Positions 9,219-46,174 of a stretch of 52,294 bases of DNA are shown one piece after another. A program made the position numbers and the translations under genes. Origin of the DNA: Candidatus Lloydbacteria bacterium (GTDB taxonomy: Bacteria; Patescibacteriota; Minisyncoccia; Phycocordibacterales; UBA6899); contig JAYSTI010000054.1 of assembly GCA_043719805.1 (NCBI GenBank), forward strand, positions 1 to 52,294, read 5' to 3'. Under the pieces are notes generated by a model. The model was not told where the DNA came from, searched no databases, and was given only the letters and a program-made list of their open reading frames with translations. Numbering within the stretch: the first letter of the stretch is position 1; each line of letters opens with the position of its first letter.

Positions 9219-9343
9219 AAAAATCAATTAAATAAATCTATATGCGAGGCGTGGGGAAAGTGAAGAAGAAGACATATTCTTATATGGCGACTGATTCACA
9301 GGGTCCCCACAACAAAGCAGATAGTTTTATTTTATTGATTTTT
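9219..9343 (+). repeat. Family A element, copy A2
   Basis: Arms AAAAATCAAT / ATTGATTTTT; TGCGAGGCGTGGGGAAAG...GAAGA-CATAT tctt ATATG-GCGAC...CCCCACAACAAAGCAG; fills the dnaN-downstream gap. Confidence 0.75.
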
Positions 9344-33524: not shown

Positions 33525-33710
33525 GAATCCGTGCGAGTGGATGAAATTCGAAGCGTGGAGAAAGCGGAGAGCGACCTAAAATTCGACGGCCGTAGGGAGT
33601 ATGAATTTGGAAGTCCCGGAACGGGGAAGACATATTCATATATGTTGACCGAGCTGCAGAGGCATAAGTGCATCACCTTACAACAAGAAGTTCGCCGCTT
33701 GCATGGATTC
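33525..33710 (+). repeat. Family A element, copy A3 (long variant)
   Basis: Arms GAATCCGTGCGAGTGG / CCGCTTGCATGGATTC (all three deviations are G-U on plus); GGATGAAATTCG...GGAAG-ACATAT tcat ATATGT-TGACCGAG...CAACAAGAAGTTCGCC; fills the pcrA-rsmA gap. Confidence 0.78.
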
Positions 33711-42160: not shown

Positions 42161-42940
42161 CTATATCTTCAGTTTTGCCGGGTGTTCATATTCCCCCTCC
42201 GTCTTCTTCCATAAAAGCTCGAATATCTGCTTCATTGCAAGGGCAAACTCGCCGCTTTCGATGATGATGGCTTGTTTTGAGTGCATAATGACAATACGCA
42301 CGCCCCAGTCGAAGGTTTCAAGTGAGCAGTCAGCGCCGTATATTTTTTCAGGAAGGAATTTCGCATTAATGCTTCCCCTCGCGGTTCCGAAAAATTTCTT
42401 ATAGGGAAGAAGTTTTGGGTCGTCAACGGTAAATCCGCGCACGGAGATATCGTTTGCAACCTTTGCCTCATTCCACGGAAAGAAGACCTCGTCATGTAGC
42501 TGTTGGTCGACCTCATTCGCACGTGCGAAGAACCCGACTATTTCTTTCCCCCTAAATTCTTTGAGCTTGTACTCGTAGGCCTGCTTCAGGCCCGCAACGC
42601 CCTCAAAGTAAAGGATGTTCGGCTTGTCACTTTTTTTGCGTTGTAACGCAAGCAGCTCGGGGACAATTTTTCGTGCGCCTCTCACGCGCTCCTCCACCTC
42701 ATCAACATAGCTTTCCGGCGAGCGCGCAATGTACATGCGTTTTTTCTCCCCCGTCATTTGCACGATGAGCCCTTTTTCTACCAGTTCCTCTGCTATTACA
42801 TATGCGGTGGGACGTTTCAGGTGTGACCGCTTCGCAATCTTGTACGGAGTAGATGGTCCAAGTTCGAGTAGCGCGAGATACACCCGCGCTTCCTTCTCGG
42901 TGAGGTTAAGCTTCTTCAGTTCGCGGATGAGTGACTCCAT
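42161..42940 (-). CDS. TrmB family transcriptional regulator
   Basis: LTEKEARVYLALLELG...IAKRSHLKRPTAY...L.EKGL wHTH; YFEG; FELLW; start MESLIRE. Confidence 0.9.
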   Translation of the reverse strand: MESLIRELKKLNLTEKEARVYLALLELGPSTPYKIAKRSHLKRPTAYVIAEELVEKGLIVQMTGEKKRMYIARSPESYVDEVEERVRGARKIVPELLALQRKKSDKPNILYFEGVAGLKQAYEYKLKEFRGKEIVGFFARANEVDQQLHDEVFFPWNEAKVANDISVRGFTVDDPKLLPYKKFFGTARGSINAKFLPEKIYGADCSLETFDWGVRIVIMHSKQAIIIESGEFALAMKQIFELLWKKTEGEYEHPAKLKI

Positions 42941-42946
42941 GTGTCT

Positions 42947-42975
42947 AGTATAAGGCAACGAGAAAAAATAGTCAA
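42947..42975 (-). promoter_or_regulatory. Sigma70 promoter of trmB (leaderless)
   Basis: TTGACT-N17-TATACT, then 6 nt to ATG. Confidence 0.65.
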
Positions 42976-43075
42976 TAATTTTGACAAATATTTCACCTTC
43001 ACCAAATAAAGCTATATATTGCAATATAAATAAGATATTTAAGCGACATGATTAGAAACAAAAGAGACATTTAAA

Positions 43076-43104
43076 TTGACATTGCGTAAAATATCGCGTA
43101 TGAT
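43076..43104 (+). promoter_or_regulatory. Strong sigma70 promoter at the start of the small-ORF island
   Basis: TTGACA-N17-TATGAT. Confidence 0.7.
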
Positions 43105-43157
43105 ATTCACAGAACGATATGCAATATTGCCTGTCGAGAACCTTGAAGGAGATCCAA

Positions 43158-43406
43158 ATGATCGTCAAATTCATTCAGACCGCCGAGGCACTCGTGTTTG
43201 GCAATAAGTCCTACATCCTCGACCTCCATGCAGATGTGGCCTACGAAAATCGCGTGGAAGAGAGGAAGGTCGAAGGTGGTGGTATCGCCGACCTCAAGGA
43301 GAAGCGCATCTACGGCACGTCGTACGGGTTCGGACCGTACAACGCAGTACGGGTACGGGCACTCCTTCCCGACTGGTCGGTCGAGGAGCCGTCGGACGGC
43401 TACTAG
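43158..43406 (+). CDS. Hypothetical protein (82 aa)
   Basis: AAGGAG SD 7 nt before ATG, downstream of consensus promoter, C/G-ending codon bias. Confidence 0.65.
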   Translation: MIVKFIQTAEALVFGNKSYILDLHADVAYENRVEERKVEGGGIADLKEKRIYGTSYGFGPYNAVRVRALLPDWSVEEPSDGY

Positions 43407-43417
43407 CCTCCCCGTGG

Positions 43418-43522
43418 CGAGGTCCACGATAAACTCCTTCGCGTTCCCGGTTCGCGTGTCAACCGGGACTTTATCGAGTTCGTCACCTATCTGCTTTGGC
43501 AGTTGCAGCGTGGTGGACTCGC
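43418..43522 (+). ncRNA. Candidate multi-branched structured RNA
   Basis: GCGAG-GTCCAC / GTGGAC-TCGC closing stem; CGATAAA / TTTATCG enclosing TCCCGGTT / AACCGGGA; CTGC / GCAG hairpin. Confidence 0.4.
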
Positions 43523-43555
43523 AGAGTATTGTTCTTTTCAATCAAGGAGACAGCA

Positions 43556-43816
43556 ATGAGCACAACCTATTTTGACTCCGAGACCAGCGTTCGTCGTCAC
43601 GGTGCGGTGATTACGTTCTCCTGTCATGACCACGATGGCTACTGGCCGAACAGCAAGACCGCCGAAGGTTCTCGGCGTGATAGGCAGATTGGGAAGCGCC
43701 ATTGGGTGAGGAAGGAGTCGCGCTGGTGGTCGTCGGGTGGTGGCGCAGGACAAGAGGTGTCGGTGAAGACACCCCGAAAAGAGGTCGGTGTCCTCTTCGA
43801 GAAGACTTGGGCGTAA
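43556..43816 (+). CDS. Hypothetical basic Trp-rich protein (86 aa)
   Basis: AAGGAG SD upstream of ATG. Confidence 0.55.
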   Translation: MSTTYFDSETSVRRHGAVITFSCHDHDGYWPNSKTAEGSRRDRQIGKRHWVRKESRWWSSGGGAGQEVSVKTPRKEVGVLFEKTWA

Positions 43817-43922
43817 CCCGAGCATGGCGAGAAAATAAAAAAATATCTCGCCCTCTTTATCAAGTTTTCAAACTACTCGTAGGTGAATAATTTAAAAACT
43901 TGTAGAGACAGAGTTCTTTGTA

Positions 43923-44177
43923 ATGCATTGGATCACGATTTGTAGGCGTAAAAGGAGAGGTCAGCCGTCGAAAGGCCGGACCAACTCTCCCATACCGAAC
44001 ATCGTTCCTGGGCGGGGTTTTGAAAGAATTTTCGATAGCATAGACCAAGTGGATGTTGGCGACGACATGCACCCAGTGACTGAGCAATGGCAGCGTGTAA
44101 ATCTCGTGGAGGTTGACGCTCTCAGCTTGGCGTATGGGTACGCGACCCATGACGCCAAGACGGTCGAGTCTATGTAA
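43923..44177 (+). CDS. Possible small hypothetical protein
   Basis: Open frame only; its 5' part overlaps a hairpin (GGAGAG...CTCTCC) and the start is unclear. Confidence 0.25.
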   Translation: MHWITICRRKRRGQPSKGRTNSPIPNIVPGRGFERIFDSIDQVDVGDDMHPVTEQWQRVNLVEVDALSLAYGYATHDAKTVESM

Positions 44178-44305
44178 TTCTTCCATGCTTTGTGTCCTAG
44201 GTAGCCGTGTTCCGGTTGATTCAAACACAGGTATGGCGTAGCGTTACTGCTATGTGAGGTCGGCAATCCGATCGACTCCTTCGGGGCATCAAACCCCCGA
44301 AGGAG

Positions 44306-44356
44306 ACTCTCGCAAGATGCGTATCTTGCCTGATGAGTCCAAAAGGACGAAAGAGT
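44306..44356 (+). ncRNA. Type III hammerhead ribozyme
   Basis: ACTCT-C | stem I GCAAGA-tgcgta-TCTTGC | CTGATGA | stem II GTCC-aaaa-GGAC | GAA | AGAGT (stem III pairs perfectly with ACTCT); predicted cleavage 3' of C44311 (CUC triplet). Confidence 0.88.
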
Positions 44357-44513
44357 GAATCTGCGTCAGAAATCAAAAAACGAAATTATGTTAACCCTAG
44401 CGGTCGCCGTGCCTAACATAATTGCAAAAAAGTTCCTCGAATTATTGGGAATCGAGGTGGTTGAGTGGAGTGATGTCAGGACGCCTGTGGGGCATGTCTT
44501 TCTTCTGAAAGCA

Positions 44514-44640
44514 CAAGAGTTTATTAAATAGGTTCGAATGCGAGGCGCGGGGAAAGCGACGAGGAAGGCATATTCATATATGGTGACCGAGTCGCGGGGG
44601 TCCCGCAACAATGCAGGCGAATTTATTTTATGAACTCTTG
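44514..44640 (+). repeat. Family A element, copy A4
   Basis: Arms CAAGAGTTTATTAAATAGGTTCG / CGAATTTATTTTATGAACTCTTG; TGCGAGGCGCGGGGAAAG...GGAAGG-CATAT tcat ATATG-GTGACCGAG...CCCGCAACAATGCAG. Confidence 0.78.
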
Positions 44641-44683
44641 AATTGATCCTGCCATCACTCCACTTAACCACCAAGGAGATAGT

Positions 44684-45148
44684 ATGAACAAGCACACCGT
44701 TTTTGCCACCAAGGGGATTTTTGTCGCTACGACCTACCACTTCAAGGGGGTCGAGATCGACGAGGATCTCGTGATGCGTATCTCGGGTGCACATTATTGG
44801 AAAATGTGTACAGAAGAGCGTATCACCACCGCAGGCATCGAGATTCGGGTCACCGAAGCCCCGAAGCTTGTCGCAACGACCCCCTGTGATTACTCCGGGC
44901 ACAGTCTTCCTGAATTCACAAGGGAAGAATGTGGTTTCGTCTGTTTCCATAAACAATATGGAGACAGGCCGGCCGGGTTCGAGTTGCGAGCAAGGGTCGC
45001 TGAAGAGATTGGCAAGGTTGTCGTTCTCCATGAATGGGAGAGGCGCAACTTTTATCGTAAGGGGTGGGGAACCCAAAACGAGCCGATCTTTGGCGATTGG
45101 GGAAAGATTGACCTCATTGGTAAATCTTTCACTTGCCTTGTCTGGTGA
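44684..45148 (+). CDS. Hypothetical protein (154 aa)
   Basis: AAGGAG SD 6 nt before ATG; no family recognised. Confidence 0.6.
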   Translation: MNKHTVFATKGIFVATTYHFKGVEIDEDLVMRISGAHYWKMCTEERITTAGIEIRVTEAPKLVATTPCDYSGHSLPEFTREECGFVCFHKQYGDRPAGFELRARVAEEIGKVVVLHEWERRNFYRKGWGTQNEPIFGDWGKIDLIGKSFTCLVW

Positions 45149-45500
45149 CCGCAGAGCTTGTTCGAACGACTGCGGTATAGAAATGAACAAGTGGTGGTCA
45201 ACTCGAGGACCTGCACACTGTGTGTCGCCCGTAGGAAGGCGGATGCACAAGGTGAGACCGTGGATAAAGCTAAAACCACGGACAAGCGCTATGACTGGTA
45301 GATACGCGTGAACTACTCGTCTTGCCGGTACGTGAACCGTGCGCTGGCTAAAGCATTCTGCGGCGGAATGCTCGCCCGAACAAATTTTCGGAAAGTTTAT
45401 TTTAGGGGAATCGGTTGATAGTCGCGTGACTATAGATTCCGCTCTTTACCAAGGATGCAAATCATTCAAGGCCGAGCGATTTGCATGCTTGTAGAGAACA
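45149..45500 (+). ncRNA. Candidate large structured non-coding RNA
   Basis: Back-to-back hairpins CCGCAG/CTGCGG (loop CTTGTTC complementary to downstream GAACAAG), CCGTGG/CCACGG, GCATTC/GAATGC, GGAATC..ATAGTC/GACTAT..GATTCC, ATGCAAATC/GATTTGCAT. Confidence 0.4.
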
Positions 45501-45579
45501 GGCAGAAAACCACGGCACTTCTTTACAAGATGATAATTATGTGCTAGACTGTTAGTAGCGATTAACCAAGGAGATTGCC

Positions 45580-45711
45580 ATGAAGAAGGTCGGACAAACC
45601 CTCATCCCGCGTCTCCCGAAGGAAGCGCGCGAGAAGTTGAAGAAGGGCGGTACGCACAAGAACAAGACGGTGTACAACCGCAAAGACAAGCACAGGAAGA
45701 AGAACAAGTAG
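45580..45711 (+). CDS. Small very basic protein (43 aa), ArfA-like ribosome-rescue motif
   Basis: MKKVGQTLIPRLPKEAREKLKKGGTHKNKTVYNRKDKHRKKNK; AAGGAG SD, TTTACA-N17-TAGACT promoter, own terminator; below ORF-track cutoff. Confidence 0.65.
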   Translation: MKKVGQTLIPRLPKEAREKLKKGGTHKNKTVYNRKDKHRKKNK

Positions 45712-45714
45712 CAC

Positions 45715-45746
45715 TGCGGCCGAGACATCTCGGCCGCAATTTTTTT
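45715..45746 (+). terminator. Intrinsic terminator
   Basis: TGCGGCCGAGA-ca-TCTCGGCCGCA-ATTTTTTT. Confidence 0.75.
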
Positions 45747-45769
45747 ACTAAGCTTGATACACTGAATTT

Positions 45770-46174
45770 ATGGAAAATAAAATTTTTGAGTCTCAACTGG
45801 AATTAGTGCACACGAGCACGAGTGGTCCTCGCCCCACATCACAATTTGATTTAGTTGAAGAAGGAAAGAAAATTGGCATGTTGCAACTACGTCACACGCG
45901 CAATGCCCCCAGCATCGGTATGCCAGAGAGTTTTGGAAACAATATATATTATGAAATTGATTCTGATTTTCAGAGAAAGGGTTATGGTAAAAAGATACTT
46001 GCGTTGGGGCTCGATGAAGCGAGAAAGATTGGGCTAAAGGATGTGCGATTAACGGTGTTTGAAGACAATATCCCCTCACAAAAAATCGTTGAAGCAAATG
46101 GAGGAAAAATGATTGATAAACAATTAAACACCGAAAGAAACATCCCTGTAAGGTTGTATGAAATAAAATTGTAA
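45770..46174 (+). CDS. GNAT family acetyltransferase
   Basis: IGMLQLRH, NIYYEI...FQRKGYGK, NIPSQKIVEANGG. Confidence 0.88.
   Translation: MENKIFESQLELVHTSTSGPRPTSQFDLVEEGKKIGMLQLRHTRNAPSIGMPESFGNNIYYEIDSDFQRKGYGKKILALGLDEARKIGLKDVRLTVFEDNIPSQKIVEANGGKMIDKQLNTERNIPVRLYEIKL

Follow-up and report, generated by a model that had tools for sequence, protein, structure and literature searches.

A predicted hammerhead ribozyme with an abutting hairpin in a small-gene operon of a CPR-like bacterium

The stretch of DNA analysed in the present study, referred to herein as the window, comprises 52,294 nucleotides of a Candidatus Lloydbacteria genome (G000; 1.40 Mb in 59 contigs, 95% complete). On its plus strand, a predicted type III hammerhead ribozyme of 51 nt occupies positions 44306-44356, and the surrounding signals place it in a predicted operon of small genes of about 2.6 kb, which would run from a promoter at 43076 to a terminator at 45738 beside a divergent TrmBL2-like gene. 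The promoter (43076-43104, +) is sigma-70-like, with TTGACA and TATGAT spaced by 17 nt and 11 of 12 consensus positions matched, and was assigned by consensus match only. The terminator scan found none between this promoter and the ribozyme; a hairpin with a U-containing stretch at 43826-43860, not called a terminator by the scan, could end part of the transcripts upstream of the ribozyme. The first small gene, ORF1 (43158-43406, +; 82 aa), matched 7 protein clusters at E<=0.001, itself included, and has a homologue in a two-ribozyme locus of genome G021. The first gene 3' of the ribozyme encodes 154 aa (44684-45148, +), has a strong ribosome-binding site and matched 4 clusters at E<=0.001, again including itself. 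Judged by these clusters, both ORFs represent real but narrow protein families, and no ORF of the region 43030-45770, these two included, matched Pfam or PHROGs. An 84-aa ORF at 43923-44177 was rejected as a gene, since none of the 21 further genomes of the genus contains a match. At the 3' end of the locus lie a promoter-like site (45522-45550, +), an ORF of 43 aa (45580-45711, +) and an intrinsic terminator (45715-45738, +). This last ORF is very basic, is kept in the genomes G001 and G018 of the genus, and closes the locus together with a strong terminator in G000, G001 and G018. The window ORFs flanking the locus encode housekeeping proteins, namely a UvrD-type helicase, a ComM-like ATPase, KsgA and PNPase.

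Several non-coding features accompany these genes. A structured leader (44456-44672, +) is closed by a helix of 44456-44481 with 44647-44672 and ends just 5' of the ribosome-binding site of the 154-aa ORF. The closing helix covaries between copies and encloses a conserved internal hairpin, and the copies precede unrelated ORFs, so that the leader may be a cis-regulatory RNA. Leader copies are found 3' of a hammerhead in the window, at C14:2590-2690 on another contig of G000 and in locus L038 of G011, and a further copy lies at L034 9500-9600. The leader of the window is interrupted at 44514-44646 by a MITE-like repeat, whose insertion left the closing helix unbroken; in the leader of G001, the sequences flanking the repeat site are only about 10 nt apart. 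The repeat, about 75-110 nt in length, has other copies in the window at 217-291, 9242-9335 and 33621-33653. It gave 28 blastn matches elsewhere in G000 and is matched in each of the 22 genomes of the genus, with approximately 73-93% identity. It was also considered as a tRNA and rejected, ARAGORN having found no tRNA in the window. Further downstream, an element that we call X (45145-45400, +) comprises about 200-250 nt of non-coding DNA and is a candidate structured RNA. It is 92% identical between G000 and G001, against 71-76% for nearby coding DNA, and several helices keep pairing despite changes in an alignment of 7 copies; copies occur in G002, G005, G011 and G019 and at L034 7818-8041 and 9203-9449. 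The copies in G005, G011 and G019 end with a terminator-like hairpin and a T-run. We regard element X as a candidate small RNA or 3' UTR element without an Rfam match, and permissive Rfam scans covering 43030-45780 and the G001 locus yielded, apart from the hammerhead, nothing but weak miRNA, sRNA and lncRNA matches far below the cut-offs.

The divergent gene on the minus strand (42161-42940) encodes a TrmBL2-like winged-helix regulator of 259 aa, counted from the likely ATG at 42940; the ORF as called extends over 42161-43024 from a TTG, and the ATG start was deduced from the translation and the alignment. The gene matched Pfam TrmB (5.2e-16), and a profile built from 29 ribozyme-linked homologues of the regulator matched TrmBL2 PDB chains over positions 11-254. 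An AF2 model (pLDDT 88.8) gave TrmBL2 as the top Foldseek matches (E 1.9e-13) with a global TM-score of 0.35, a low value that probably reflects a different orientation of the domains. Taken together, Pfam, the profile and Foldseek describe an N-terminal winged helix and a TrmBL2-type C-terminal domain. Six TrmBL2-like paralogues are encoded in G000, three of which lie beside a ribozyme or beside a locus of the hairpin motif Y described below. A promoter-like site at 42947-42975 (-) ends approximately 7 nt before the likely ATG, which suggests an mRNA that is leaderless or nearly so.

The ribozyme itself could be read position by position. Stem III (44306-44310 with 44352-44356) has 5 bp counting A15.1-U16.1, with U16.1 at 44310, and is open at its end; C17 at 44311 is an unpaired non-G nucleotide before the scissile bond; stem I (44312-44318 with 44323-44329) has 7 bp and a loop of 4 nt (44319-44322); the CUGAUGA box (44330-44336) leads into stem II (44337-44340 with 44345-44348), which has 4 bp, a G-C pair beside the core and the loop AAAA (44341-44344); and the GAAA box occupies 44349-44352, all on the plus strand. 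The hammerhead core is complete, with both boxes, the A15.1-U16.1 pair and a non-G at position 17 showing zero deviations, and the cut is predicted between 44311 and 44312. Loops cap stems I and II and stem III is open, in the reading as in the fold, which is the type III topology. The catalytic core, the 5-bp stem III, the 4-bp stem II closed by G-C at the core, the type III identity and cleavage after C44311 had all been put forward in a first-pass annotation of this DNA, and direct reading agreed with each of them. The annotation had also described a stem I of 6-7 bp under a loop 1 starting with UG. Seven base pairs are present, but the loop of 4 nt starts with UG only when the top U-A pair is opened. 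Its further claim of a loop 2 ending in A was borne out, the final A being present in 22 of 22 copies of the family; conservation of the U that tops stem I reaches at least 90%, and these two conserved positions fit a contact between loops 1 and 2 without proving it. The core pattern CTGATGAG-N10-CGAAA had a single occurrence in the window and none in 100 shuffled sequences. By every feature visible in its sequence, 44306-44356 is confirmed as a hammerhead. In nearest-neighbour folds of the region, stems I and II and a hairpin immediately upstream formed, and stem III was replaced by a pairing of the core CUGAUG with 44366-44371; this competing pairing is not kept in the orthologue of G018.

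Covariance models were applied to the same question. At the gathering cut-offs, Rfam gave 0 matches in the whole window. The best Rfam match was nevertheless the family that had been proposed beforehand, RF00008 (Hammerhead_3), with 23.2 bits in a permissive scan (a local match to model positions 9-47) and 24.9 bits in a genome-wide scan, both under a gathering cut-off of 48.5 bits that is an operational threshold and not a biochemical criterion. A second hammerhead of G000, at C14:2509-2563, scored 38.5 bits, and among G000 and 60 relatives RF00008 at E<=0.01 gave 24 matches in 12 of the 61 genomes, none of which reached the cut-off, the best having 45.4 bits. We parsed 22 distinct copies from the loci of these 61 genomes and aligned them. 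Of 351 cells, 99.7% paired on the hammerhead structure, a percentage that is partly circular, as the selection of copies relied on a structure-aware model and on a script that required the stems; the two-sided changes, found in 15 of 18 pairs, are unaffected by this choice. The covariation score was reached by 0 of 500 shuffles, and pairing fell to 30-52% when the partners were slid along the alignment. A held-out covariance model (R1) was built from 20 copies, leaving out the window copy and its G018 orthologue. It gave a single match in the window, at exactly 44306-44356 (+), with 68.9 bits, E 9.1e-17 and all 51 of 51 model positions (1-51), and two matches in G000, the other being the C14 paralogue (73.5 bits). 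The possibility that the element is a chance look-alike or a decayed, inactive copy, for which the score under the Rfam cut-off and the competing fold might be cited, appears close to negligible in view of a core without deviations, the empty shuffles, the held-out E-value and covariation with both the orthologue and the paralogue.

This type of hammerhead is widespread in the chromosomes of ultra-small, CPR-like bacteria. At E<=1e-4, R1 matched 36 of 151 evenly sampled genomes of the same order, 17 of which have 2-8 copies. Arrays were common in relatives, for example five copies within 3.6 kb in G033, where small ORFs on the same strand separate the ribozymes, and three copies within 1.3 kb in G053. 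The window locus is no array: R1 found one ribozyme only, and two ribozymes of the same orientation flanking genes do not occur in the window. The exact subtype pattern was present in at least 120 stretches in named genomes and in at least 120 on IMG/VR viral contigs. Among the 80 named records listed, 36 are titled Saccharibacteria, Saccharimonadales or Saccharimonadia, 25 belong to other Patescibacteria and 10 to other phyla, and 9 are unlabelled. The chromosome had been called CPR-like beforehand, and a genome of 1.4 Mb, relatives of 0.4-1.7 Mb and Patescibacteria titles on 61 of these 80 records are consistent with that description. On the 80 viral loci listed, R1 gave 130 matches, 129 of them to the full model. 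Six IMG/VR loci (L201, L208, L220, L234, L259 and L266) were seen to carry 4-7 copies of the same 51-nt hammerhead within a few kb. On these counts, the predicted ribozyme type is common and is shared by phages and small-genome bacteria. A search of one literature collection returned no relevant paper linking the hammerhead with the candidate phyla radiation, Patescibacteria, Saccharibacteria or TrmB.

The hairpin immediately upstream of the ribozyme is the second element of interest. As anticipated in the first-pass annotation, an 11-bp, G+C-rich hairpin is present at 44276-44305 (44276-44286 with 44295-44305, +), with a loop of 8 nt and a gap of 0 nt to stem III. It was rejected as an intrinsic terminator: stem III follows in place of a U run, and the hairpin is absent from the terminator scan. 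The orthologue in G018 keeps the loop of the hairpin and has a stem altered by compensating changes, and the C14 paralogue shows the same layout of hairpin plus ribozyme with an unrelated hairpin of 11 bp at the same place. For counting, we required a perfect hairpin of at least 6 bp ending no more than 3 nt from stem III, and random positions in the same loci served as controls. Such a hairpin abuts 33 of 51 ribozyme copies in relatives of the order (controls, 33 of 255), 53 of 140 copies in named genome records (85 of 700) and 93 of 124 copies on viral contigs (52 of 620). When gaps of up to 7 nt were allowed, the gap was 0 nt for 24 of 37 hairpins in relatives, 34 of 56 in named genomes and 78 of 100 on viral contigs. 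As three independent sets show it conserved in immediate contact with stem III, we regard the hairpin as part of the device; by these frequencies, it is a conserved part of the natural ribozyme module in phages and bacteria. This feature was not found described in the main-text passages on hairpins and stems of a 2011 article on bacterial hammerheads (PMC3088659).

The neighbourhood of the ribozymes also bears on whom they serve. A homologue of the TrmBL2-like regulator was present in 14 of 38 ribozyme loci of relatives (146 kb) and 23 of 107 loci in named genomes, whereas none occurred in the 93 ribozyme loci of viral contigs (822 kb). Moreover, a AAGTTCTTTGA-like box with a consensus near AAAGTTCTTTGAAA lies within 20 nt 3' of the ribozyme in 28 of 51 copies of relatives (14 of 510 controls) and in 35 of 140 named-genome copies (13 of 1400 controls), and in 0 of 124 viral copies (16 of 1240 controls). 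The ribozyme copy of the window has no such box downstream. The box was considered as a promoter -35 element and is probably not a promoter, as an alignment of 63 cases showed no -10-like signal at a constant spacing; a strict regular expression for it was not enriched across G000, with 19 occurrences found and about 11 expected. These associations point to a link of ribozyme loci with a TrmBL2-like regulator and a downstream box in small-genome bacteria that is not seen on viral contigs. They weigh against the explanation that ribozyme and small ORFs form a cassette left behind or carried by a phage or other mobile element and serve that element rather than a host operon. In favour of such an origin, the same 51-nt architecture is frequent on IMG/VR, together with its hairpin, the locus differs in mosaic fashion from species to species within the genus, ORF1 and the 154-aa ORF belong to tiny families, and a MITE-like repeat has been inserted; in addition, passages of PMC3088659 describe bacterial hammerheads as lying mostly near prophage genes. 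However, no phage family was recognized among 20 window ORFs between 30077 and 51646 (Pfam; 10 of them also PHROGs) or among 15 ORFs scanned in the loci of relatives, and no prophage or integrase neighbourhood appeared in the window ORFs scanned, so the earlier statement that no prophage hallmark is visible nearby holds for this interval. The flanks are the housekeeping genes named above, and in a search of viral contigs the 154-aa ORF had no relative and ORF1 had one match, weak and partial. On balance, we consider service to a mobile element unlikely.

A further element, which we call motif Y, recurs in the same loci. In the window, a hairpin at 43826-43852 is followed by the first copy of Y (43855-43907) and by a GTTCTTTG box at 43913-43922, and a second copy, with a variant base in which the bulged U is C, lies at 45444-45496, all on the plus strand. 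Motif Y is a hairpin of 37-69 nt and 15-28 bp, whose conserved base combines helices of 5 bp and 4 bp on either side of a single bulged base, and whose inner stem is variable and covarying. Further copies were found in G000 at C14:2255-4165 (five) and C14:19566-19614, and at L034 7191-9965 (six). Each of the 19 copies examined folds as a single long hairpin and is preceded by another hairpin. Motif Y often has a GTTCTTTGA-like box 3' of it and sits between cistrons where relatives carry hammerheads. The exact Y pattern occurred in 4 of 61 genomes, all within the genus, with 15 matches against 0 for the reversed control, and no Rfam family matched it.

The clearest case is G001, a genome of a sister species in the same genus with a syntenic locus, in which the hammerhead is absent. 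Several cistrons of this locus appear from their sequence to encode small membrane proteins or a lipoprotein, and the cistrons are separated by units consisting of a hairpin, motif Y and a AAGTTCTTTGA-like box. One hairpin-plus-Y unit lies just upstream of the conserved leader, which in G001 follows motif Y instead of a hammerhead; therefore, Y and the ribozyme hold equivalent positions. We tentatively suggest that, in this lineage, hammerhead and Y belong to a set of at least two interchangeable punctuation cassettes of TrmBL2-linked operons for small, often membrane-type proteins, and that Y might be an undescribed RNA-processing element with the same job. The cassette would then read, in order, hairpin, hammerhead or motif Y, AAGTTCTTTGA-like box, structured leader and ORF. 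If this is true, a nuclease, for instance RNase III, would cut Y; a less likely alternative is that Y is a new self-cleaving motif. A hairpin motif that takes the place of a ribozyme in a sister species is a lead to a new processing element, and a passage of a 2019 review (PMC6765202) recounts how the hammerhead led to twister by the same guilt-by-association logic. The interval between the first Y copy of the window (43855-43907) and the cleavage site raises another explanation, in which the main job of the ribozyme is to give an exact 3' end to a separate, possibly non-coding RNA of about 400 nt. The sole sizeable ORF there is the unmatched 84-aa frame, and C14 has a similar, ORF-poor interval of about 190 nt between a copy of Y and the hairpin plus ribozyme. 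Nevertheless, the two intervals share no detectable sequence, no Rfam family matches, and ribozymes flank ORFs in the arrays of relatives, and this role is judged to be very improbable.

Herein, we propose that the ribozyme is catalytically competent and cuts the operon transcript in cis, uncoupling the RNAs on either side and leaving both new ends capped by hairpins; we hold this reading to be probable. First, the plus-strand transcript would fold and cut itself after C44311. Second, the upstream product would end with the 11-bp hairpin and a 6-nt tail, which contains the 5' strand of stem III and bears a 2',3'-cyclic phosphate. Third, the downstream product, carrying the structured leader and the 154-aa ORF, would begin with a 5'-OH nucleotide buried in the 7-bp hairpin of stem I. 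In other words, the ribozyme would act as transcript punctuation, by which stability and translation of the RNAs on either side are uncoupled. The zero-gap hairpin may also form a stack with the short stem III and shield ribozyme folding from sequences upstream. PNPase (encoded in the window), RNase J and RNase III are all encoded in G000; stable stem-loops stall 3' exonucleases such as PNPase, and 5'-end-dependent nucleases need a single-stranded 5' end. Therefore, the module is read as splitting a polycistronic RNA into hairpin-capped pieces, and we infer transcription through the site, cleavage in vivo and a protective role of the hairpins. Against this reading stand the Rfam score under the cut-off, the presence of a single ribozyme, the lack of the downstream box, the competing fold and the hairpin at 43826-43860. 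Circular or ligated RNA products are unlikely, as the locus carries a single ribozyme and a search of the genome, which is 95% complete, did not find RtcB.

The same cleavage could have the opposite consequence for the downstream RNA. In the glmS system of Bacillus subtilis, the 5'-OH made by the ribozyme marks the RNA for RNase J1; therefore, cleavage could destabilise the RNA downstream. Down-regulation would then be the purpose, the 5'-OH exposing the mRNA of the leader and the 154-aa ORF to RNase J and lowering or gating expression. RNase J is indeed encoded in G000, a structured leader lies 3' of the ribozyme, and activity might in principle be gated when the core pairs with 44366-44371 instead. 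Nevertheless, the 5' end after cleavage would be paired in stem I without a single-stranded overhang, and a base-paired 5' end generally hinders 5'-end-dependent nucleases. Moreover, the G018 orthologue does not preserve the alternative pairing, and the permissive Rfam scan recognized no ligand-binding element. Down-regulation is considered quite unlikely, and hairpin-capped processing remains the preferred reading. The ribozyme alone would be one more canonical hammerhead among thousands. Its context, comprising the stacked hairpin, the TrmBL2 link and the exchange with motif Y, is worth following, and a hairpin set on stem III offers a concrete idea for the purpose of bacterial hammerheads, namely hairpin-capped mRNA ends.

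These results can be compared with known systems. The nearest counterpart is provided by prophage arrays, in which clustered hammerheads flank genes; these cleave polycistronic RNAs of about 2 kb in vitro, and processing to gene-length mRNAs was proposed for them (PMC3088659, Perreault et al. 2011); the 2019 review, in the passages concerned, repeats this idea of long-transcript processing and still calls the function of bacterial hammerheads open (PMC6765202). The present element resembles the arrays described in passages of PMC3088659 in its consensus core, its intergenic position on the coding strand, the flanking of single small genes by the arrays of its relatives and the polycistronic-processing role that has been proposed. 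The legend of a supplementary figure, printed in that article, also annotates a MarR-type regulator beside the Agrobacterium array. Unlike the arrays in those passages, the window locus has a single ribozyme and no prophage or integrase context. The window family adds the TrmBL2-like link, the conserved abutting hairpin and, in relatives, the downstream box, none of which was found described in the main-text passages of PMC3088659. The element is a further example of the gene-flanking hammerheads, in a chromosomal, non-prophage setting. With RF00008 (Hammerhead_3), it shares the type III topology and the core at a score of 23.2-24.9 bits against a cut-off of 48.5. The neighbouring regulator matches the family of TrmBL2 (PDB 5box, 5bpd, 5bpi and 5bqt) over nearly its full length by profile and fold, with identity of about 18% and a bacterial (CPR-like) host in place of Thermococcales. 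In the glmS ribozyme acting with RNase J1 and in RiboJ-type insulators, a cis-cleaving ribozyme in the 5' leader resets the 5' end of the downstream mRNA; here, ligand dependence is not evident and the natural context is an operon of small proteins. In the early genes of phage T7, RNase III cuts between the cistrons, so that every upstream mRNA ends in a 3' hairpin. An intercistronic cut and a 3' hairpin are likewise predicted in the present locus, whereas here the RNA is predicted to cut itself, and the Y hairpins of the same loci look more like such T7-type, protein-dependent sites than the hammerhead does.
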